Origin: Fimbriimonadia bacterium
GTDB lineage: Bacteria; Armatimonadota; Fimbriimonadia; Fimbriimonadales; JABRVX01
Direction of reading: 5' to 3'
Length of the DNA stretch: 64,000 bases
Assembly: GCA_041483895.1 (NCBI GenBank)
Contig: JBGPGO010000015.1
Coordinates: 6,526 to 70,525, forward strand
The translations under genes were made by a program, and so were the position numbers. The notes under the pieces were generated by a model that was not told the DNA's origin, made no database searches, and saw nothing but the letters and a program-made list of their open reading frames with translations. This document shows, in pieces, positions 52,694 through 64,000 of the stretch; the stretch's first letter is position 1; each line of letters begins with the position of its first letter.

Positions 52694-52981
52694 TTGATGA
52701 TGGAAATCAAAGTTTCGTACGATATCGAGCAGATCATAGCGGAAAAGGTGAACTCCGGTGAGTTTGAAACTCCGGAACAGGTTGTAGAGCGGGCGGTGCG
52801 GTTGCTTCATGAGCGGGACCGGGAAATGAAGAAAGAGCTTGAAGCACTCCTGCGGGAAATCCAAAAGGGCGTTGATGACATTGAATCCGGACACGGAATC
52901 GAACTAACGGACGAGGTCTTTGAAGAAATCGTCCAAGAGGCGCGTGCGGAGTTGGTAGCCGAAAACCGTGAGTCAGCATAG
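52694..52981 (+). CDS. parD: ParD-family type II antitoxin
   Basis: 95 aa. VNSGEFETPEQVVERAVRLLHERD...IQKGVDDIESG pattern. Sits 3 nt upstream of the ParE-like gene. Confidence 0.8.
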   Translation: MMMEIKVSYDIEQIIAEKVNSGEFETPEQVVERAVRLLHERDREMKKELEALLREIQKGVDDIESGHGIELTDEVFEEIVQEARAELVAENRESA

Positions 52982-52984
52982 GTT

Positions 52985-53293
52985 GTGGTCGCGAAAAAAC
53001 TGATCATCAGCCGTGATGCTCGGCGAGATTTGCTAGAGATTTACAAGTATCTTGAGATTAAGAGTGGAAATCCTTCGTCCGCATTTCGGGCGCTCCGGGC
53101 GATCTATCGGGAATTGCAGCGTGTGGGCCGTTCGCCGGGTGTTGGCCATATCCGAGAAGATTTGACGAAGAAGCCTTGGAGGTTTTGGAGCAAATTCAGT
53201 TATCTGATTGCGTACGAAGAGCAGGAAGCGAGCGTAACTGTCTTTCGCGTCCTTCACGCGGCGCGTGACCTACGCCGGTGGCTCGAGGGTTAA
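52985..53293 (+). CDS. parE: ParE/RelE-family type II toxin
   Basis: GTG start, 102 aa. ISRDARRDLLEIYKYL...YLIAYEEQEASVTVFRVLHAARDL is typical of ParE. Confidence 0.8.
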   Translation: MVAKKLIISRDARRDLLEIYKYLEIKSGNPSSAFRALRAIYRELQRVGRSPGVGHIREDLTKKPWRFWSKFSYLIAYEEQEASVTVFRVLHAARDLRRWLEG

Positions 53294-55611: not shown

Positions 55612-56382
55612 CTACCCCAACGGCTCATCCGAAACGATCAAGAAGTCGTACTTCGTACGAAGCATATCGGCCTCGCCGTCGAGTACACGTTTCACTGCCC
55701 AACCGGTAACGAAGTTCAGCGCCCCATTCTTGTCAATCGCCGGGCCCCACTCGTGCCCGACCCATTTCAGGCCCTTGTCCCGAATAGCTATCTCGCCGAT
55801 CAGCGCGCCCATTCCGGCAATCAAGAAGTCACGCATGCCCGAAGGCTCCTTCTTGATCCGCTTGGCCATACCGTCCAAAGCATCGATGGAGATGGGCCGA
55901 TAATCGACCAGTACACCATATCGATCCTTGGCATATTCGATGAACAGCTCGGCCTGGAATGCCATCCAGTCTGGGAGTGGGGCGCCGGGATTGGTGATGG
56001 TGGAATAATATTGTAACTGAAGGCACTCCTCCATCCCGCCATGCAGCCGGGTCGCCGCTGAGGTGATAGGTTCGAGAGAAGCGGAACCTCGTCCCTCTTC
56101 CGATCGAACTTCGTGCTCGCCGACCCAGCCCCAGCCGTGGGTGTGCACATAAATCTCGCCATGAATCTGCCCAAGCGTGCCGATCATGGCGTGTCTCGGA
56201 TCGTCTGGTAATTCGCCCCCCGTTCCCAAGACATCGTCGATCTTCTTAATAGACGCAGGACTCAGGTCCAACGGGACCTTGTACTGCTCCTTTGCGTAGG
56301 CGATGTTGAACAGCACCGGGTCCTCCGGCATCTTCGCACCCTGCCCATTGCCTCCAAACAACCGCTGCAACTTGTCCCACAT
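55612..56382 (-). CDS. hypothetical protein with internal two-fold duplication
   Basis: 256 aa, no signal peptide. The two halves align by eye: YKVPLDLSPASIKKIDDVLG...IGTLGQIHGEIYVHTHGWGWVGEHE versus YGVLVDYRPISIDALDGMAK...IAGMGALIGEIAIRDKGLKWVGHEW. Confidence 0.65.
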   Translation of the reverse strand: MWDKLQRLFGGNGQGAKMPEDPVLFNIAYAKEQYKVPLDLSPASIKKIDDVLGTGGELPDDPRHAMIGTLGQIHGEIYVHTHGWGWVGEHEVRSEEGRGSASLEPITSAATRLHGGMEECLQLQYYSTITNPGAPLPDWMAFQAELFIEYAKDRYGVLVDYRPISIDALDGMAKRIKKEPSGMRDFLIAGMGALIGEIAIRDKGLKWVGHEWGPAIDKNGALNFVTGWAVKRVLDGEADMLRTKYDFLIVSDEPLG

Positions 56383-56433: not shown

Positions 56434-56830
56434 GCGATCGCGCTATCTTTTCGCGCGACGGAGGGCGGTGCGGAGGGCGCGGATTTCGTCCCGGAAGGCG
56501 CGGGATTGCTCACCGCGGATGTCTAGGTTCTCCAATACCTCCTCGCAAGCGTCCCGCAGATCGCCTGCTGCCGAATAACCTCGCCAACCTCTCCGTGGCC
56601 TCGACGCTCCCCTGGTCCACCACCTCGCATATCCCCGGGATGACAAACGTTCCATTCGCCAACTTCTCGGCCGCCGGCCAACTCGACGCAAGAAGAAAGA
56701 TATATGTTTGCTTGAACGCATATCTCATTTCTGCGATCAAATTCAAAGGTGGATTTTGTGAGCTATCCTGCCACCAATTTAGAACCACTTGTTAACTCTT
56801 TTTTCGATATAGAGTAAAAAACACGTAAGT

Positions 56831-56862
56831 ATACCAGTACAACAATCGAATAGTACTGGTAT
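56831..56862. promoter_or_regulatory. 10-bp inverted repeat upstream of the GHKL gene (candidate operator)
   Basis: ATACCAGTAC-N12-GTACTGGTAT in an AT-rich stretch 139 nt upstream of ATG 57001. Its function is only inferred. Confidence 0.35.
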
Positions 56863-57000: not shown

Positions 57001-59202
57001 ATGTTAGAGACGAAACAAGAAAACAACACAGAAGTTATCCGGTCGGGTCAGGTGGGAAGGAATAGGGACGACATGACAACAGGCAGGATTGCAGCACCAG
57101 TAGGTTCGATTTGGGCGTACCCGCGAAAGAGCGCCTTTCGAAAATTAGCGGATCAATTCCAATTGAGAACTGGGATTACAGAATTGGTCGATAACGTCGT
57201 GGACAATTTCCATCGGTGCAGCCAGTTCGGCAATCATTCGCCCTCAGAGCTGCGAATTGATATTCGCATCTCGCCAGAGCGGGTCGAAATATTCGACAAC
57301 TCAGGTGGCGTGCAGCCAGAAGAGCTTGGGAACCTTGTGACGCTGGGCGCGGCAAGCGAAACGCCGAACCGCATTGGAGTTTGGAGTATGGGCTTTAAGA
57401 TGGCCACGCTCGGAATCGGCTGGACCACAGAGGTCACTTCGACTCCATACAACGGCGCCGACTACTATATCGACGTGCCAGATTCGAAAACGAAGCGGGG
57501 GATTCCGTCAGTTCGGATCGCTCTCAACCGGACTTGGTGGTTGGATGAGAAGGACTGGGAAGTACCCATCGGCCTGCCTTCTGACCCACCTTCGCGCGGC
57601 GTAACGAGGATTGAAATCACTGAACTGCGGGAAGACTTGGATCCAGTAACTATTGACGCCCTAGTGGAGGAAGTTACCAGTGATCTCGGAAGCTACTTTG
57701 GCGACATCGCTGCAGCGCAGGCTACTCCCTTTCGGATATTTGTGAATGATATTGAGGTGAAGTTCACAGAGCGCCTTTCTGGTGCAGCCATCCGCGGGAC
57801 GTTTGCTTCCGGTTCCGAATGGGGTCCAGGACGACATGTGTTTAGCTTCGTAAAGCGCGGTGATGATGGCCGTTCGCGGACTCTGGATATGGAGGTTATT
57901 GCAGGCATTCAGCCGACTGCGACGGCAGAAAACCACGGCGCATTTCTATTCGGAGATCCGGGAGCGGGTCCGAGATATTTCGTCCGGCTTGACGACCTTC
58001 GGAGGCACGGATTTACTGATCGCGTCACCTCCCAGGAGTTTCGCCGGGTAAGGCTACTGGTGACTTTCAAAGGTGACGCCGATTTGATACCTTGGACGAA
58101 TCCAATCAAGAATGGGTATCGGGAAGACCATCCATTGAGAAGGCAGGTTCAAGACGCATTGCGGCAGGTGATTGCACCGCTGGAAGACCTTTGCCGAGAG
58201 CACTACGAATTCGATACGCTCCCATTCTCTTCAACCTGGGACGATCTCAGCCTCGTCGATCGGGTAAGCCGGATCGTCAGGCCGCTAGCTCTAAGTGAAG
58301 ATGACGCGAACGACCCAGATTTGAACCAAGGGTTGATTGACGTCATCGCACGCAATTGGATGTCCGACGGCGATTGGCAATCACCATTGTGGGATCACCA
58401 AGTTGACAAGTTGCCGCCAACCAAACGGCCTTTCTGGGATGGAGATTCTGCGAATGAAGCGAAGCTCAAACGGGCCAATCGCAACAAGATTCTCCGAAGG
58501 AACTCGGGCCTCAATCAATACAGGTTGCTTTTAGCCTGGTTCAATGGCGACGATTTGCTTCCCGTCGAAAAAGAACTGATCTCCGGCCAAATGCAACCAT
58601 GGTCGAATCTGGGTCAAATGGAAGAAGAAAGGCAGGGTGGGGACATAGCTGCCTCCACTTCCCAAGGAGCAAGACCAAGGGAGGAGCTTGCAGAACCTGC
58701 CCCAACGCAACCTACTGAAATGCAACAGTCGGTCATTCAGGTGTGCGCGCCCATGCCCGAGAAGCTCGTTTATGAGGTCGAACAACTGACTAGTTCAGTA
58801 AACAGAGCAGAGGCAGTGCGCGTTGCGTTGGCGGCGTTCGTGCTTTGGCACAGGGAGCGGGCTGGAAACAGCCAGACGCCGGTCGAGTTGCCGCAGGATC
58901 CCCTCAGAACCCGCAGGGGAAGGCCGCGAAAGTCTCTGGACGAATTCGACCAGCCGTCTCATACACCTGGATCGCCCTTGGCGGCGCAAAATGACATCAG
59001 CCCGGAGGAGATAGGGGCGAACTTGCAACTATTAACTCCGCGTGAGCGCGAGGTGCTGAAGTTGCGCATGGGGATCAACGACCGTCGAAAACGAACGTTG
59101 AAGGAAGTCGGGTACGAACTAAAAATAACCCCCGAGCGCGTCCGCCAAATTGAGCTCCGCGCGTTGAGAAATCTGCGCGCCCGTTTGACGCCGGAGAACT
59201 GA
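57001..59202 (+). CDS. GHKL (MORC/paraMORC-like) ATPase fused to an RHH-like segment, an AT-hook and a sigma-70 region-4 HTH
   Basis: Uninterrupted 733-codon ORF. Bergerat-fold motifs occur in order: ITELVDNVVDN (N-box), IFDNSGGV (G1), IGVWSMGFKMATLG (G2). C-terminus: VIQVCAPMPEKLVYEVEQLTSSVNRAEAVRVALAAFVLW, RTRRGRPRKS, LTPREREVLKLRMGINDRRKRTLKEVGYELKITPERVRQIELRALRNLR. Confidence 0.8.
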   Translation: MLETKQENNTEVIRSGQVGRNRDDMTTGRIAAPVGSIWAYPRKSAFRKLADQFQLRTGITELVDNVVDNFHRCSQFGNHSPSELRIDIRISPERVEIFDNSGGVQPEELGNLVTLGAASETPNRIGVWSMGFKMATLGIGWTTEVTSTPYNGADYYIDVPDSKTKRGIPSVRIALNRTWWLDEKDWEVPIGLPSDPPSRGVTRIEITELREDLDPVTIDALVEEVTSDLGSYFGDIAAAQATPFRIFVNDIEVKFTERLSGAAIRGTFASGSEWGPGRHVFSFVKRGDDGRSRTLDMEVIAGIQPTATAENHGAFLFGDPGAGPRYFVRLDDLRRHGFTDRVTSQEFRRVRLLVTFKGDADLIPWTNPIKNGYREDHPLRRQVQDALRQVIAPLEDLCREHYEFDTLPFSSTWDDLSLVDRVSRIVRPLALSEDDANDPDLNQGLIDVIARNWMSDGDWQSPLWDHQVDKLPPTKRPFWDGDSANEAKLKRANRNKILRRNSGLNQYRLLLAWFNGDDLLPVEKELISGQMQPWSNLGQMEEERQGGDIAASTSQGARPREELAEPAPTQPTEMQQSVIQVCAPMPEKLVYEVEQLTSSVNRAEAVRVALAAFVLWHRERAGNSQTPVELPQDPLRTRRGRPRKSLDEFDQPSHTPGSPLAAQNDISPEEIGANLQLLTPREREVLKLRMGINDRRKRTLKEVGYELKITPERVRQIELRALRNLRARLTPEN

Positions 59203-59232: not shown

Positions 59233-59269
59233 GTCGCGGCAACAGGATGCAATGACTTGTTGCCGCGAC
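59233..59269. terminator. bidirectional hairpin between the GHKL gene and the restriction endonuclease gene
   Basis: GTCGCGGCAACA-N13-TGTTGCCGCGAC (12-bp perfect stem), lying between stops 59202 (+) and 59282 (-). No strong T-tract. Confidence 0.55.
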
Positions 59270-59281
59270 CTAACGTCCCAG

Positions 59282-59893
59282 CTATACCTCGACACCAATC
59301 AACACTAACGGCACGGCTGGCACACCGCGGCCCTGTCGGACGACGTTGTAAAGCTCGCCCTCATAGTAGGCAATGCCGGAGCTCATTTGCTTCGAGAGAG
59401 ACTTCATTGGAACCAATTCGATTCCCACATCGACCTGGTCGCCAACGTAGAACGCGAGGTGCTTAACGAAAATGTCATACGCCACGAACGAGTACTTGCC
59501 GAATTGGACTTCTAGGGCGACGCGATCTCTTACGAAATCAGTTTGGTTATAGCTAAAGATCGGTTCGTAGCCAGCCGCCTCAATTTCGGCCTTTTGCTCC
59601 TCAGCGCTCATAGTCATAGTCTTTCTGATCAGCCTTTGGTCTCTTGTAACCCAATAGTTAACACGGCTTTCGGACCATCCGCGCACTCTCAGCAATTCGG
59701 CAAATGCCTTATTGAGGTCGATAGGCGAAAACAGTTTACGGCCGGGCATTGTCTTTTCTTTGGAAATTTTCGTCCGACACTTGTCTGCGTCAACGAGGTC
59801 GATGACATCTCTGATCTCTTGATAAAGGGCCGGTTTATGGACCATGAGAAATTCGACCCCGTTGAGGTGGGAATAGACCTCGGCGATCTTCAA
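59282..59893 (-). CDS. type II restriction endonuclease, BglII/BstYI-like
   Basis: 203 aa. DFVRDRVALEVQFGKYSF matches the BglII catalytic stretch (D..EVQF), recalled from memory. SSGIAYYEGELYNV and VPLVLIGV resemble the BglII C-terminal blocks. ATGA-coupled to the upstream methyltransferase. Confidence 0.7.
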   Translation of the reverse strand: MKIAEVYSHLNGVEFLMVHKPALYQEIRDVIDLVDADKCRTKISKEKTMPGRKLFSPIDLNKAFAELLRVRGWSESRVNYWVTRDQRLIRKTMTMSAEEQKAEIEAAGYEPIFSYNQTDFVRDRVALEVQFGKYSFVAYDIFVKHLAFYVGDQVDVGIELVPMKSLSKQMSSGIAYYEGELYNVVRQGRGVPAVPLVLIGVEV

Positions 59894-60840
59894 TCCGCAG
59901 CCTCTGGGCTAAGTCCAAATGCGGTTTGGCCATTCGTCTCCCACGGGTTTCTCGCCAGTTTGCTATTCGAGCCAGTAGGATCGTAAACCGGTCTACCCAT
60001 TGGACGAGTCCGAAGGTTTCCTGCCAACTCCAAGTTGATTCGCTCCCTAGCGATCTCTATGTACTTAGAATGGATCTCACTTCCGGCCCCCAGACGTCCG
60101 TGCCGCACTGCGGCAATTATGCTCGTACCTGTCCCAAGGAACGGATCGTATACCCAATCGTCCTCATTCGTCATAGAGAGGACAAGCCGCTCGATAAGCT
60201 CCACCGGAAATTGGCACGGATGCACCGTTTTCTCAACATGATTGTTCTTGACGTTCGGGATTACCCAAAGGTCGCCAGGGTTCTTACCGAGCGGGTTTCC
60301 GGAGTATTCACCTGCACGGGGTCCCTTAAAATGCTTCTTGCCGGGGTACTTCTGGGGTACACGGACGCCATCCAAATTGAACACGTAATTGTCCGACTTC
60401 GTGAACCAGATTATCGTTTCATACCTACCGGAAAACCTTTTACTGCAATGAAGCCCATGTTCGAAGTGCCAGATGATTCGATTACGCATCTTCAGTCCAA
60501 GATCGGCGAAAATCGGATAGAGGATGGTGTCGAGTGGAATGATTTGTCTACCGTCAACGTAGTTGCCCACTTGCCAGCAGATGCTTCCAGTTGATTTCAA
60601 CGCGCGGACGCACTCGCGAATCACAGCCGCCTGTTGCTCGACGTACTGATCCAATTTGAGCCTCTTCTCGTATTCCTTGCCGAGGTTGTAAGGCGGTGAG
60701 GTCACGACGAGTTGCAACGTCCCGTTTGGCACGGTCTTAAGAAACTGGAGACAGTCGCCATCGTTCACAATGATTCGTGCGTCCAGCGCAAACCTTGTCG
60801 CAATTCGAGTCCTTTTGCTTCCAATTAGGGCCATTGTCAT
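59890..60840 (-). CDS. DNA methyltransferase, beta-class N4-cytosine/N6-adenine (SPPY)
   Basis: Start set at ATG 60840 (AAGGGAG 12 nt upstream). Motif IV (LVVTSPPYNLGKEY) precedes motif I (DPFLGTGTSIIAA), which defines the beta permutation. Confidence 0.85.
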   Translation of the reverse strand: MTMALIGSKRTRIATRFALDARIIVNDGDCLQFLKTVPNGTLQLVVTSPPYNLGKEYEKRLKLDQYVEQQAAVIRECVRALKSTGSICWQVGNYVDGRQIIPLDTILYPIFADLGLKMRNRIIWHFEHGLHCSKRFSGRYETIIWFTKSDNYVFNLDGVRVPQKYPGKKHFKGPRAGEYSGNPLGKNPGDLWVIPNVKNNHVEKTVHPCQFPVELIERLVLSMTNEDDWVYDPFLGTGTSIIAAVRHGRLGAGSEIHSKYIEIARERINLELAGNLRTRPMGRPVYDPTGSNSKLARNPWETNGQTAFGLSPEAAD

Positions 60841-60985
60841 GTGCAATTTTACTCCCTTCACGCATCTTCCTGTGTGGGGTGTGGAAAAGTCCTGTGACAC
60901 ATGACTCGCGCCGAAGTTCGTTTTGTGACAAAAAAGTCGTCGCCGCAGCCGTTGGGGTTGGTTCTCGGAGATTGGAATTGCCGGT

Positions 60986-61004
60986 CGGGGCTGCGGCTAC
61001 GGGT
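60986..61004. repeat. 19-bp direct repeat, left copy (overlaps the Dam-like MTase stop)
   Basis: CGGGGCTGCGGCTACGGGT, identical to 61970-61988. Confidence 0.85.
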
Positions 61005-61821
61005 TTAGCGTCGCCAGCATCTCGTCAGCGGGGAGGCGTTCCTGGCAGGATATCCGGCGGGGGGCGGAGAGGATTTGGATGTCGAAGCCGAGGGAGGCGT
61101 AGAGGTCGAGGATGCGTTCGGTGGCCTGGTTGGACGCGACGACCGGGCCGGGGTGGCGGGAGAGCCAATGGGCCAGGCGGACCTGGTCGTCCCAGGTGAA
61201 GTCGTCCTTTGAGTACTTGGTGAACTCCACATCGTAGGGAGGGTCGGCATAGATCAAGTCGTTCGGCGACGGGGATAGGTCTTCGAAGTCGCGGCACAGG
61301 AGTTCATAGTCCTGAAGAACCTCTTTGTACTCTCGGAAATCGCGCGTGTAGGTGATTGTCTTGTATTGCCCGAACGGCACATTGAAATGGCCACTGTTGT
61401 TGAAGCGGCAGAGGCCGTTGTAGCCCGTGCGGTTGAGGTAATAGAACAGAGTCGCGGCCTCTTTTGTCGCCGCCTTGCCGGCCGCGATCAGCTCGTTGAA
61501 TCGCTCGCGATTTTCGTAATAGGTCTCGGAATCGTTAAGGAGCTCCACTGATGGACGGTGGCCGTTCGAACTTGCCGCCGTGGGCATGCGCAGCCCGCGC
61601 TGCAACCAGGTGTAGAAGTTGATGAGATGGGCGTTGCGGTCGGCCAGCAGCGCCCGTTCCGGCTGCAAACCGAGTGCCACCGCCATCCCCCCAACAAATG
61701 GCTCAACTAGCCGACGGTGTCTGTGGGGTTCATACAGTTCGCGCAAGATCGGAACAAGCCACCGCTTTCCGCCCGCCCATTTTAGGGGGGGATCGAGGGT
61801 TGGTTGGGTTAGGGTGGGCAT
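60997..61821 (-). CDS. Dam-like (D12 class, alpha-type) N6-adenine DNA methyltransferase
   Basis: Start set at ATG 61821 (274 aa). PLKWAGGKRWLVP, EPFVGGMAVAL (motif I), then YADPPY (motif IV). Confidence 0.85.
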   Translation of the reverse strand: MPTLTQPTLDPPLKWAGGKRWLVPILRELYEPHRHRRLVEPFVGGMAVALGLQPERALLADRNAHLINFYTWLQRGLRMPTAASSNGHRPSVELLNDSETYYENRERFNELIAAGKAATKEAATLFYYLNRTGYNGLCRFNNSGHFNVPFGQYKTITYTRDFREYKEVLQDYELLCRDFEDLSPSPNDLIYADPPYDVEFTKYSKDDFTWDDQVRLAHWLSRHPGPVVASNQATERILDLYASLGFDIQILSAPRRISCQERLPADEMLATLNP

Positions 61822-61969
61822 TGCGCCTATTCTACACCGGCGGATGCGGATGGTGTTTGGGTCTAGGTTGGTTGAAGTTGGGGAGTTATCGGTACCAGTG
61901 GACCCAAACACATCCAAAAGGGACGGCAGGGACTTGAGGGACCTCAGCCAATTGCGCACGATCGGCATG

Positions 61970-61988
61970 CGGGGCTGCGGCTACGGGT
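61970..61988. repeat. 19-bp direct repeat, right copy
   Basis: CGGGGCTGCGGCTACGGGT, 984 bp from the left copy. Located 149 nt upstream of the MTase start and 15 nt before the fucosidase ATG. Confidence 0.85.
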
Positions 61989-62002
61989 GTACAATTTAGA
62001 AA

Positions 62003-64000
62003 ATGTTCCCCCTGATCATCCTCATGCTCACCCAAATCCCTCCGAAAACCCTCCCCCCGGTGCCGAGCGCAAGGCAGCTCGCCTGGCACCAGATGGAGTT
62101 CTACGCCTTTGTCCACTTCGGCATGAACACCTTCACCGACCGGGAGTGGGGCCAAGGGACCGAGCCCGAGAGCCTGTTCAACCCCAGTCACCTCGACTGC
62201 CGCCAGTGGGTCCGCGCCTTCAAGGCCGCCGGGATGAAGGGCGTCATCATCACCGCCAAACACCACGACGGATTCTGCCTCTGGCCCTCCAAATACACCG
62301 AGCATTCCGTGAAGAACAGCCCTTGGAAGGGGGACGTGTTGCGCGAGCTGTCCGACGCCTGCAAGGAGTACGGTCTGAAGTTGGGCGTCTACGTCTCGCC
62401 CTGGGACCGCAACCAACCCGTCTATGGCGATTCGCCCAAATACAACGAATATTTTAGGAACCAGCTTCGCGAAGTGCTGACCCACTACGGCCCCATCTTC
62501 GAGGTCTGGTTCGACGGCGCGAACGGCGAGGGACCGAACGGCAAGCGCCAAGTATACGACTGGCCCGGCTACATAAAAGTGGTGCGCGAGTGCCAGCCGA
62601 ACGCCGTCATCTTTAGCGACGCGGGGCCGGACGTGCGGTGGGTCGGCAACGAGGACGGCTACGCGGCCGCCACTAATTGGTGCATGCTCAATCGCGACCA
62701 GTTCTATCCCGGCGGGCCGGGGTCGGAGCAGTTGCCGATGGGTCACGAGGACGGGACGCATTGGGTGCCAGCGGAGTGCGATGTCTCCATCCGCCCAGGC
62801 TGGTTTTATCACGCCGGCGAGGACGCGCGGGTGAAGACGGTGCCGGAGCTTCTGGACATCTACTATGCGTCGGTCGGGCAGAACGGCTCTTTTTTGCTCA
62901 ATGTTCCGGCGGATAAACGTGGGCTGATTGCCGACGTGGATGTCGCGCGATTGGCGGCTTTCCGGCATGCGCTGGATGAGACGTTCAAGACCGATTTGGC
63001 GCGCGGGGCAAAGGCGACGGCAAGCAGTGCGCGGAAGGGCTTCCCCGCTTCCAATGCGACCGATCAGTCCGATCAGTCCTATTGGGCCGCAAAGGACGGT
63101 GTCACCGAAGCAACGCTTACTCTGGATATGCGGAAACCGCAGACATTCAACCGCATCGTCCTGCAGGAATCCATCGCGCTGGGCCAGCGGGTGAAGTCGT
63201 TTACCATCGAATACTACAAGGGCGGAAAATGGCAGACGCTGGCGGATGGCACGACGATAGGCCACAAGCGCATCTTCCGCACCAAAACAACTACGGCGCA
63301 GAAGGTGCGGCTGGTCATCCACGACGCCCGCGCCTGTCCGACCATCTCCACCTTTGCACTCTATGCCGCCCCGCCGACCGTTGATATCGAGGGCACAACG
63401 GATTTCATCGATTCGACCATGGTGACGCTCCTGTCCGACTTCCCCGGCGCAACGATTTTCTACTCGGCCGATGGATCGGATGCAACCAAGGGGTCAGTGA
63501 AATACACCGGTCCGTTTCGACTGACGAAATCAGGGACCGTAAGGGTGGTGGTGTACTACCACAATGTCGGCAGCCTTTCGACGGCGATGCAGAAATTCAC
63601 ACGATACGAGAAGGCCGACCTGCGCCCAGCCATCGTCTTCGTCCGCGCGCCGGATGAGGGCTTGCGCTACGCCTATTACGAGGGCGGCTGGCAGCACCTG
63701 GGCGACATGACAAAACACACACCGGTTCTGGTAAAGACCACGCCGGATTTCAGCATAAGGGTCCGGAAGCGGGACGAGAACTTTGGCCTGCGCTTCACCG
63801 GCTTTATCAACGTCCCGACCGACGGCATCTACACGTTCTACACCGCGAGCGACGACGGCAGTCGGCTGTCAATCGGCGACAAACTGGTGGTGGATAACGA
63901 CGGTCTGCATGGGATGGTGGAGAAGTCCGGCGTCATCGGCCTGCGCGCGGGTTTCCATCCGATAACGGTGGACTATTTCAACCTGAGCGGCGGCCTGGGG
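62003..64000 (+). CDS. GH29 alpha-L-fucosidase with F5/8 type C and PA14-like C-terminal domains (3' end outside window)
   Basis: Absent from the supplied track. My own translation from ATG 62003 gives 666 codons with no stop up to the window end. AWHQMEFYAFVHFGMNTF, ITAKHHDGFCLWPS, EVWFDGANGEG (GH29). KATASS..NATD..YWAA (discoidin-like). GLRFTGFINVPTDGIYTFYTASDDGSRLSIG (PA14-like). Confidence 0.9.
   Translation, partial: MFPLIILMLTQIPPKTLPPVPSARQLAWHQMEFYAFVHFGMNTFTDREWGQGTEPESLFNPSHLDCRQWVRAFKAAGMKGVIITAKHHDGFCLWPSKYTEHSVKNSPWKGDVLRELSDACKEYGLKLGVYVSPWDRNQPVYGDSPKYNEYFRNQLREVLTHYGPIFEVWFDGANGEGPNGKRQVYDWPGYIKVVRECQPNAVIFSDAGPDVRWVGNEDGYAAATNWCMLNRDQFYPGGPGSEQLPMGHEDGTHWVPAECDVSIRPGWFYHAGEDARVKTVPELLDIYYASVGQNGSFLLNVPADKRGLIADVDVARLAAFRHALDETFKTDLARGAKATASSARKGFPASNATDQSDQSYWAAKDGVTEATLTLDMRKPQTFNRIVLQESIALGQRVKSFTIEYYKGGKWQTLADGTTIGHKRIFRTKTTTAQKVRLVIHDARACPTISTFALYAAPPTVDIEGTTDFIDSTMVTLLSDFPGATIFYSADGSDATKGSVKYTGPFRLTKSGTVRVVVYYHNVGSLSTAMQKFTRYEKADLRPAIVFVRAPDEGLRYAYYEGGWQHLGDMTKHTPVLVKTTPDFSIRVRKRDENFGLRFTGFINVPTDGIYTFYTASDDGSRLSIGDKLVVDNDGLHGMVEKSGVIGLRAGFHPITVDYFNLSGGLG

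Follow-up and report, generated by a model that had tools for sequence, protein, structure and literature searches.

The open reading frame (ORF) described here lies in a 64,000-nucleotide stretch of contig JBGPGO010000015.1 from a Fimbriimonadia bacterium (the window, whose numbering is used throughout) and encodes a GHKL ATPase that carries region 4 of a sigma-70 factor (sigma-4) at its C-terminus. As read from the sequence, the novelty is this sigma-4 C-terminal module on a conflict ATPase of the paraMORC type, while ATPases of that kind are already known. GHKL/MORC ATPases recur in bacterial restriction-modification (R-M) and defence loci and, to our knowledge, almost none of them has a demonstrated mechanism. 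The only known job of sigma-4 is to read the -35 promoter element. If the ATPase acts as a DNA clamp, the graft of sigma-4, together with two other DNA-binding elements, is an unusually explicit hint at the target of this clamp. The architecture is unusual and mechanistically suggestive; the sigma fusion is known from one sequence in one assembly, and we infer its function.

The ORF runs uninterrupted from ATG to stop over 733 codons, with no internal stop, as described in an earlier note made on this DNA from the letters alone. Met25 (nt 57073) is an equally plausible start, because the alignments with homologues begin at approximately residues 25-35. By sequence and structural model, the first 500 or so residues combine a GHKL domain with an S5-like transducer domain C-terminal to it, and their sequence is MORC/paraMORC-like. 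The three Bergerat motifs occur in the canonical order that the note had recognised. Motif I is E61-LVD-N65-VV-D68 (ELVDNVVDN, residues 61-69) and has the E-x3-N-x2-D pattern; in the family alignment, D64 and N65 are present in all 120 sequences and D68 in 119 of 120. Motif II, D99-NSGG103, is also kept across the family. In motif III, I125-GVWSMGFK133 (G126-V-W-S129-M-G131), the middle glycine is replaced by a serine. Position 129 is a glycine in 117 of 122 relatives, and this is the sole deviation of the window protein in the 125-sequence alignment. The residues that are invariant in an 18-sequence alignment include E61, D64, N65, D68, G126, W128, G131, K133, W179, W186, I363-P364-W365, K370, and W413. 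Of these, I363-P364-W365 and K370 belong to the S5-like domain, the lysine being found in 123 of 123 relatives.

Taken alone, the window protein scores under the Pfam cut-offs (HATPase_c_3, 18.1 bits vs 25, E 0.003; HATPase_c, E 0.01); most of the homologues scanned exceed the HATPase_c_3 cut-off. The family profile matches MORC4 (4.9e-9), MORC3 (1e-6), TopoVI-B (2e-5), and MORC2 (5e-5) in the PDB, whereas its matches to HtpG (E 0.04) and MutL (E 0.27) are far weaker. A second, weak stretch of the profile aligns to the middle domain of MORC3. An AlphaFold 2 model built from the family alignment reached a predicted local distance difference test score (pLDDT) of 75 and a predicted template-modelling score (pTM) of 0.71; a single-sequence AlphaFold model reached a pLDDT of only 35 and was useless. 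When the model was compared with the PDB by Foldseek, the best matches were the N and M domains of Hsp90/TRAP1 (E 6.4e-13, approximately 450 columns, template-modelling score (TM) ~0.38), and in the BFVD viral library they were Hsp90-like, RIIA, and topoisomerase II ATPase modules. These profile and fold matches agree with the MORC/paraMORC-type N-terminus suggested earlier. The helical domain that follows the S5-like domain has no Pfam match in any member scanned, and the subsequent linker, at residues 526-577, is unaligned and variable in the 18-sequence alignment.

The core ends with a ribbon-helix-helix (RHH)-like segment, in which the pattern x-V-S-x-R-L-P, a helix, G-x-x, and then an E-A-V-x-x-A-V helix is kept across the family. 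Residues 578-621 are modelled as two helices with a block-mean pLDDT of approximately 80-88. Individual family members show only sub-threshold matches, several of which are to RHH-type families: VapB_antitoxin (4 of 16 members, best 0.013), Rv0623-like (0.004), Arc (0.0045), BrnA (0.16), and PSK_trans_fac. On this basis the segment is probably an RHH, and presumably serves as a dimerisation and DNA-binding element. The closest homologues (P0013-P0019) stop 5-15 residues past it, which indicates that family members usually end with this segment. The strand-helix-helix pattern noted earlier is therefore conserved and modelled as two helices; it has no significant profile match and is the normal end of the family, not an add-on.

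In the window protein, approximately 110 residues follow the RHH-like segment and correspond by sequence to the C-terminal part of a primary sigma factor, region 4 being preceded by RGRPRK. The Pfam model Sigma70_r4 (PF04545) matches residues 675-727 with an E of 5.2e-13 and 48.7 bits, vs a cut-off of 24.1 bits, and a region 4.2-like helix-turn-helix (HTH) is found at residues 709-726. More than 60 sigma chains of the PDB match the tail, including sigma-4 chains such as 1ku7, the best being SigA chains (2.3e-12). The NCBIfam models RpoD, RpoS, and SigA match it as well (up to 2.8e-16), covering only residues ~660-730 and remaining far under the model cut-offs. A homology search with the full protein returned only the window protein itself and RpoD proteins aligned through region 4. 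The tail is 44-54% identical to real RpoD proteins (BLASTP), and 26 of 49 positions (53%) equal the E. coli RpoD 4.2 sequence used for comparison in the earlier note. The homology to sigma region 4 claimed in the earlier note is thus supported by Pfam and by the SigA chains, whereas a match "nearly residue for residue" is not. Sigma70_r2 and Sigma70_r3 have no match in the window protein at E<=1; having no region 2 or 3, the protein is therefore not a sigma factor.

Compared with nine primary sigmas, the tail retains the E-R-x-R-Q of the recognition helix, with TRER changed to TPER and LRFG to LRMG. It ends 7-8 residues past the recognition helix, without the "HPxRSxxLxxFL" C-terminal helix that is present in 9 of 9 primary sigmas. 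In sigma factors, this segment (E. coli L607 and neighbours) contributes to the binding of the beta-flap tip. Given these contacts, canonical docking on the beta-flap is disfavoured because the helix is absent. Isolated sigma-4 binds -35 DNA, as in the complex of Taq sigma-A region 4 with -35 DNA. The sequence of the tail favours a plain DNA-binding role, docking on RNA polymerase (RNAP) being less likely; the sigma-mimicking dock proposed in the earlier note is weakened by the missing helix and by the change from TRER to TPER. The AT-hook named in the same note is a putative one, with an RGRP core between basic flanks (RRGRPRK): the pattern [RK]GRP[RK] is found once in the protein and appears in 0.5% of shuffles. 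The Pfam AT_hook model gives no match in the window protein at E<=1. A derivation of this motif from the acidic finger of sigma region 3.2 was considered, as the HMMER alignments extend collinearly, and was rejected, as the linker alone gives z <= 1.4.

When 1.84 billion cluster representatives were searched exhaustively by HMMER with residues 1-625 as the query, 144 of them matched at E<=1e-3; seven, including the query itself, did so at E<=1e-30. The best relatives are approximately 30% identical over residues ~25-500. The sigma tail is in none of the 143 other family representatives, as determined by a local phmmer search with residues 561-733, and the same search over genome-derived homologues and upstream partner proteins returned only the window protein and bona fide sigmas. 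The 90% cluster of the window protein has one member, on one 93-kb NCBI contig, and in about 15 billion proteins the fusion was seen only this once. The fusion that the earlier note could not recognise is thus confined to the window protein among the 144 representatives; as for the conservation that the note proposed to check, no homologue shares the sigma-4 tail or this particular R-M neighbour. The family core spans at least 144 clusters at 50% identity, from phages, haloarchaea, Bacteroidota, Armatimonadota, and others. Beyond HATPase_c_3, no curated family-specific model of Pfam, NCBIfam, or PADLOC matches the ATPase core, and PADLOC and PHROGs give for the core only phrog_20521 (unknown function) and faint matches to MzaB and TmtA. 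Judged by its sequences, the GHKL-S5-RHH core marks an uncurated family with exchangeable C-terminal modules, whose genes are carried by phages or lie among defence or DNA-modification genes.

The loci of the closest relatives share several neighbours. A RusA-like gene is directly downstream in three of them (L001, L004, and L007), 7-deazaguanine genes (TGT/DpdA, QueC, QueE, FolE) are nearby in L003 and L004, and a portal gene is found in L022. In four of six loci, a protein of approximately 92 residues of the HTH_23/HTH_38 type, homologous among loci, is encoded directly upstream of the GHKL gene, which suggests that the core works with an HTH partner. The tail was examined as a replacement of this partner; the two HTHs are in register, and the candidate was rejected with an hhalign E of 0.055, a probability of approximately 1%, and no hmmsearch match, so that it serves as an analogy only. 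Three phage-like loci exhibit a GC-rich hairpin with arms of 13-16 bp (L002 861-893, L004 7862-7904, L005 7844-7877) between the GHKL gene and a small upstream gene, which is the HTH gene in L002 and L005. This suggests that the GHKL gene is separately controlled, as a moron-like unit. The closest genome-borne homologue (L007 8061-9653), from a Eubacteriales metagenome-assembled genome, is N-terminally truncated, starts inside motif I, and has in-frame stop codons upstream, with the RusA-like gene still directly downstream; it is probably a decaying prophage copy. A tblastn search of INPHARED (50,697 deposited phage genomes) found no relative, and scans of IMG/VR with two family alignments found only distant GHKL fragments. 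An alignment-based homologue search, which is limited by word pre-filtering, found almost nothing.

Other members lie close to genes of DNA modification. Of two further RHH-type members, P0021 (L037) heads an operon comprising GHKL, an SNF2 helicase, and an HsdM-like N6 methylase (N6_Mtase), and P0023 (L038) is divergent from RE_AlwI and a double D12 methylase, with a shared control region of 515 bp. In a Halorhabdus plasmid copy (L036), the GHKL gene is followed by a Dam methylase, and a Rhizobium plasmid copy is a split gene inside a defence island. In a haloarchaeal subgroup, the RHH is followed by a nucleotidyltransferase domain of the MNT type (NTP_transf_2). A DUF8154 gene always comes after these members, at or overlapping the stop codon (L006 5220-5735, L023 9069-9602, L024 2656-3189), and may encode the cognate partner, perhaps HEPN-like, of the MNT-type domain; one copy of this subgroup is near a CBASS system. 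Members from Bacteroidota and Armatimonadota (approximately 530 aa, 20-27% identity) have a HEPN-like end with an Rx4H motif in place of the RHH; the HEPN assignment rests on this motif, Pfam giving no confirmation at E<=0.01. The neighbours of these HEPN-like members include DndB and DndE (four proteins each), DndD-like ATPases, Mrr, ResIII, AbiC, RelA_SpoT, and Schlafen. At several of the Bacteroidota loci L009-L018, the Rx4H-ended GHKL proteins adjoin dndB/C/D/E-like genes; one possibility is that phosphorothioation modules have in them a restriction or abortive partner not described so far. One family member carries NOV_C. R-M or DNA-modification neighbourhoods were found in the window, in L035, L036, L037, and L038, and at the Dnd loci. 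The R-M system that the earlier note had seen beside the ORF is confirmed by a BstYI homologue (E 9.4e-93) and methylases (Table 1), and the association of GHKL genes with R-M genes also holds for the wider family, at the AlwI/D12, SNF2/N6-methylase, Dam, and Dnd loci. This wider context agrees with PMC2292703 (Iyer et al. 2008) and PMC3710099 (Anantharaman et al. 2013).

Among the described systems, paraMORCs, which were reported in R-M neighbourhoods (PMC2292703, Iyer, Abhiman & Aravind 2008), are similar in several respects. Like them and other prokaryotic MORCs, the family has an N-terminal GHKL domain with ATP motifs, then an S5-like domain with a conserved lysine, and a sequence of the HATPase_c_3 type; its C-terminal effector or adaptor domains vary, and methylases, restriction endonucleases (REases), and superfamily 2 helicases recur nearby. 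From the textual description in PMC2292703, the protein could not be placed in any of the named families paraMORC1-5, and a term search of that paper did not find the helical domain, the RHH-like C-terminus, or the sigma-4 tail. Fusions of paraMORC and HEPN (Ymh) were likewise described in R-M neighbourhoods (PMC3710099, Anantharaman et al. 2013). The relatives from Bacteroidota and Armatimonadota resemble them, with their Rx4H HEPN-like end beside Dnd, Mrr, ResIII, and Abi genes, whereas the window protein ends in RHH, AT-hook, and sigma-4, a DNA-binding rather than an RNase end.

Another comparison is with the Mza anti-phage system, in which a sigma-70 region-4 protein (MzaA) is associated, in a defence context, with MzaB, which we take to be a MutL-like GHKL ATPase. 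The two are separate proteins of a five-gene system, whereas the window protein is a single chain. The tail matches the MzaA models of PADLOC (E 5e-11) and NCBIfam (NF041931, 5e-14) through region 4 only, with 52 bits vs a cut-off of 800 bits. The GHKL part of the window protein has no MzaB match, one relative matching faintly (E 0.0035), and no Mza partner genes, MzaC-E included, are found in the window neighbourhood. Membership in Mza was rejected, as the MzaA match is far under the cut-off and restricted to region 4 and no partners are nearby. Literature searches on Mza and on the defence mechanisms of bacterial MORCs yielded nothing usable.

With regard to better-known proteins, the tail shares with region 4 of RpoD/SigA the 4.1/4.2 HTH and the E-R-x-R-Q, whereas regions 1, 2, and 3 and the C-terminal helix are absent and the equivalent of R584 is a proline. 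The module order and the predicted disordered linker are those of MutL and Hsp90, which is the basis of the clamp model presented below. In contrast to these proteins, the presumed dimeriser is an RHH of approximately 45 residues, there is no endonuclease motif, and the profile matches to MutL and HtpG are poor. By profile, the closest solved relatives are the eukaryotic MORC silencers, which also combine a GHKL clamp with a nucleic-acid or chromatin reader; they have a CW zinc finger and a coiled coil where the window protein has RHH, AT-hook, and sigma-4.

Based on these observations, we tentatively propose, with a probability of about 0.4, that the protein is an ATP-gated clamp, dimerised by its RHH, which sigma-4 and the AT-hook guide to promoter-like DNA and which serves as an accessory of a DNA-modification-based defence island. 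The domain content, the family itself, the singular tail, and the genomic contexts are observed; dimerisation, clamping, the DNA target, and the defence role are what we infer here. The RHH would join two chains at the C-terminal end. Because a disordered linker is predicted at residues 526-577, the layout would be MutL-like, with an N-terminal domain, a linker, and a dimerising C-terminal domain. On ATP binding, the two GHKL domains at the N-terminal end would then pair, in the manner of MutL, Hsp90, and MORC, and complete a ring able to trap DNA. The two sigma-4/AT-hook tails of the dimer could bias the loading of the clamp to -35-like hexamers flanked by AT-rich DNA, and the RHH, the tail, or both may autoregulate the gene through the upstream inverted repeat. 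As an accessory of the BstYI-type R-M island, the clamp might occlude or mark promoters on incoming elements, or act on DNA in some other way in the service of this conflict system.

Several observations weigh against this proposal. The serine that replaces Gly129 in the ATP lid may impair the ATPase activity, and the proline at the equivalent of sigma-70 R584 (E. coli numbering) may make the -35 specificity different or weak. A profile search of PDB sequences with the RHH-like segment returned nothing relevant. The six closest relatives (~30% identity) are in phage-like contigs and do not adjoin R-M genes, and their upstream HTH partner is not detectably related to the tail. In the window, the gene is convergent with the R-M operon and is not co-transcribed with it, a strong hairpin lying between them. 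Finally, selection for the fusion cannot be shown, because the fusion is a singleton.

Part of the evidence can be read differently. The tail could be a sigma mimic that docks on the beta-flap of core RNAP or acts as a competitor of sigma, bringing the ATPase to sense or block transcription, for instance when it is redirected by a phage. It is indeed nearest to the primary (group 1) sigmas (NCBIfam RpoD up to 2.8e-16, PDB SigA 2e-12), its alignments extend collinearly into the position of region 3.2, and the sigma-70-family protein MzaA, whose system also has the GHKL protein MzaB, offers a precedent. Nevertheless, the missing C-terminal helix, the methionine in place of the phenylalanine of LRFG, and the basic RGRPRK in place of the acidic region 3.2, which fits DNA binding and not the RNA-exit channel, make such a mimic quite improbable; the similarity to region 3.2 alone is not significant (z <= 1.4), and the lack of region 2 excludes that the protein binds the core in the way a sigma does. 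A more modest role would be that of a transcriptional regulator only, in which the RHH and the sigma-4 HTH repress their own promoter or time the BstYI-like R-M genes as a stand-in for the missing controller (C) protein, the ATPase being unrelated to promoter reading. Autorepressors with RHH domains are established among toxin-antitoxin antitoxins and for many proteins of plasmids and phages. The AT-rich upstream region contains a perfect 10-N12-10 inverted repeat, with exact copies only there in the window, the R-M operon has no HTH_3-type C gene, and the L038 homologue shares its control region with the divergent AlwI R-M operon. We consider this role unlikely, as the inverted repeat precedes the GHKL gene and neither the methylase nor the REase genes, the hairpin lies between the gene and the convergent R-M operon, relatives keep the RHH in phage contexts without R-M, and the second and third DNA-binding elements are left unexplained.

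The tail may also have no selected function, if a recent deletion or rearrangement, or else an assembly or sequencing error, placed the 3' end of a sigma gene behind a GHKL-RHH gene of phage origin. Such an accident would explain why the fusion is a singleton in a family that normally stops right after the RHH, and it is consistent with the GC content at third codon positions (GC3) of the tail (0.64, a small sample), which comes nearer to the host values than the 0.57 of the GHKL part. Deviations at conserved positions (G129S, TRER to TPER, the truncated sigma C-terminus) point the same way, as does a small neighbouring gene that looks frameshifted, so that the island shows some decay. However, all 733 codons are open, the other invariants are retained (E61, D64, N65, D68, G126, G131, K133, P364, W365, K370), and an AT-hook-like motif is unlikely to occur at the junction by chance (0.5% of shuffles). 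Moreover, being only 44-54% identical to any known RpoD, the tail has a long independent history with fold-defining residues kept and is not a fresh fragment, which leaves an accident a doubtful explanation. The remaining candidate is a GHKL protein of phage origin with a counter-defence or chaperone-like role, similar to RIIA or Hsp90, which would persist as a relic of a decayed mobile element with no functional link to R-M. In its favour, the closest homologues lie in phage-like contigs, where they are near a portal gene or have early genes on one side and a RusA-like gene on the other; Hsp90/TRAP1 gave the best fold matches, and the viral library gave Hsp90-like and RIIA proteins. Its chances nevertheless appear slim: the profile is nearer to MORC/TopoVI-B than to HtpG (5e-9 vs 0.04), the fold matches are generic for GHKL plus S5 (TM ~0.38), the 50,697 deposited phage genomes contain no relatives, and more distant members lie in bacterial and archaeal defence or R-M neighbourhoods.

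The promoter-directed clamp thus remains the reading that we prefer. In a bolder form, which we regard as very unlikely, a MORC-like clamp with a captured sigma reader and an AT-hook would load on the promoters of unmodified incoming DNA and silence them beside the restriction system, and the GHKL-S5-RHH family as a whole, also present in phages, would make up a new class of accessories that clamp DNA in DNA-modification-based immunity. If true, such a promoter-silencing clamp would be a prokaryotic counterpart of MORC-mediated silencing; we know of no silencing activity shown for any bacterial MORC-like member. Provided that the tail is functional, the protein makes it practicable to ask whether MORC-like proteins of bacteria target promoter DNA or transcription in the way that their eukaryotic counterparts target chromatin.

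Table 1 Features of the GHKL-sigma4 ORF and of the adjacent R-M genes (window positions; residues are those of the 733-aa protein)
Feature	Position	Strand	Details
Whole ORF	57001..59202	+	733 codons plus stop, uninterrupted ATG-to-stop
GHKL (Bergerat) ATP-binding domain	57103..57720	+	Residues ~35-240; motifs I-III, profile and fold matches
S5-like transducer (middle) domain	57721..58125	+	Residues ~241-375; model secondary structure, Foldseek N+M alignment, conservation
Family-specific helical domain	58126..58575	+	Residues ~376-525; conserved W413, W464-D465
Disordered acidic/polar linker (predicted)	58576..58731	+	Residues 526-577; pLDDT <50
Ribbon-helix-helix-like segment	58732..58863	+	Residues 578-621; family conservation and model, sub-threshold profile matches
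AT-hook-like motif RTRRGRPRKS	58906..58935	+	Residues 636-645; sequence pattern only
Sigma-70 region 4 (4.1 + 4.2 HTH)	58978..59181	+	Residues ~660-727; Pfam match 675-727
Perfect inverted repeat ATACCAGTAC-N12-GTACTGGTAT (10-N12-10)	56831..56862		AT-rich DNA, ~140 nt upstream of ATG
Hairpin between GHKL-sigma4 ORF and REase gene	59233..59269		Repeat arms 12 nt, stem 14 bp, minimum free energy -32.6 kcal/mol, z -4.8
BstYI-homologous type IIP REase, 203 aa	59282..59893	-	PDB 1sdo, E 9.4e-93; convergent with GHKL-sigma4 ORF
N6_N4-class DNA methyltransferase	59890..60900	-	Stop overlaps REase start
Dam-type (D12 class) N6-adenine methyltransferase	60997..61968	-	Bracketed by 22-nt direct repeat

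The gene sits in an insert at 52.7-62.0 kb among carbohydrate-active enzyme genes, flanked upstream by a GH116 gene and a sialate esterase gene and downstream by a fucosidase-like ORF. The insert comprises a ParDE pair, a permease, a 256-aa orphan, the GHKL-sigma4 gene, the BstYI homologue, the N6_N4 methylase, and the Dam-type methylase. The REase and the N6_N4 methylase have a GC3 (0.62 and 0.59, respectively) that is, like that of the GHKL part, lower than in host genes (0.65-0.76), whereas that of the Dam gene (0.76) is host-like. We read the lower values as the mark of a foreign, horizontally acquired island. The hairpin that separates the convergent genes has no U-run and resembles a bidirectional terminator; promoter and terminator consensus scans remained at background level and found no terminator, and Rfam gave nothing over 56.3-62.1 kb. 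The inverted repeat upstream of the GHKL-sigma4 ORF is a candidate operator. Exact copies of its arms occur in the window at this site only, with none upstream of the methylase or REase genes. The 733-aa protein does not resemble a C protein, as it has no HTH_3 match and the inverted repeat is only upstream of its own gene.

The order of the R-M genes (59282-61968, minus strand), D12 Dam-type methylase, N6_N4 methylase, and REase, mirrors that of two-methylase GATC cassettes of the DpnII/MboI type, the nuclease here being a homologue of BstYI (RGATCY). Other family members also adjoin GATC-related or D12 methylases, namely the AlwI system in L038 and Dam in L036. The 22-nt direct repeat CGGGGCTGCGGCTACGGGT(T/G)TA, found at 60986-61007 and 61970-61991 with 21 of 22 positions identical, exactly brackets the Dam-type ORF; one copy overlaps its stop codon and the other is just upstream of its ATG, which looks like a cassette insertion or a duplication junction.

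On the other side of the GHKL-sigma4 gene, a pair of ORFs of 92 codons each (56510-56788 and 56443-56721, minus strand) overlap in different frames; they have no Pfam match and are read as one frameshifted small gene. The adjacent 256-aa protein (55612-56382, minus strand) has no match in Pfam, NCBIfam, PADLOC, or PHROGs and apparently contains two internal repeats; its 90% cluster holds one relative, of 248 aa, from a JGI metagenome. At the left edge of the lower-GC insert, a ParD-like gene (weak match) and a ParE gene (E 1.8e-12) form a toxin-antitoxin pair at 52694-53293. Beyond the Dam-type gene, the ORF at 61999-64000 (plus strand) runs off the end of the window and is alpha-L-fucosidase-like by reading of its translation ("HHDGFCLWPSKY"), and a 478-codon antisense ORF at 61886-63322 (minus strand), without Pfam match, is probably spurious. 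The host was taken to be a member of Verrucomicrobiota, its aldose epimerase being 61-63% identical to those of Opitutus and Lacunisphaera.

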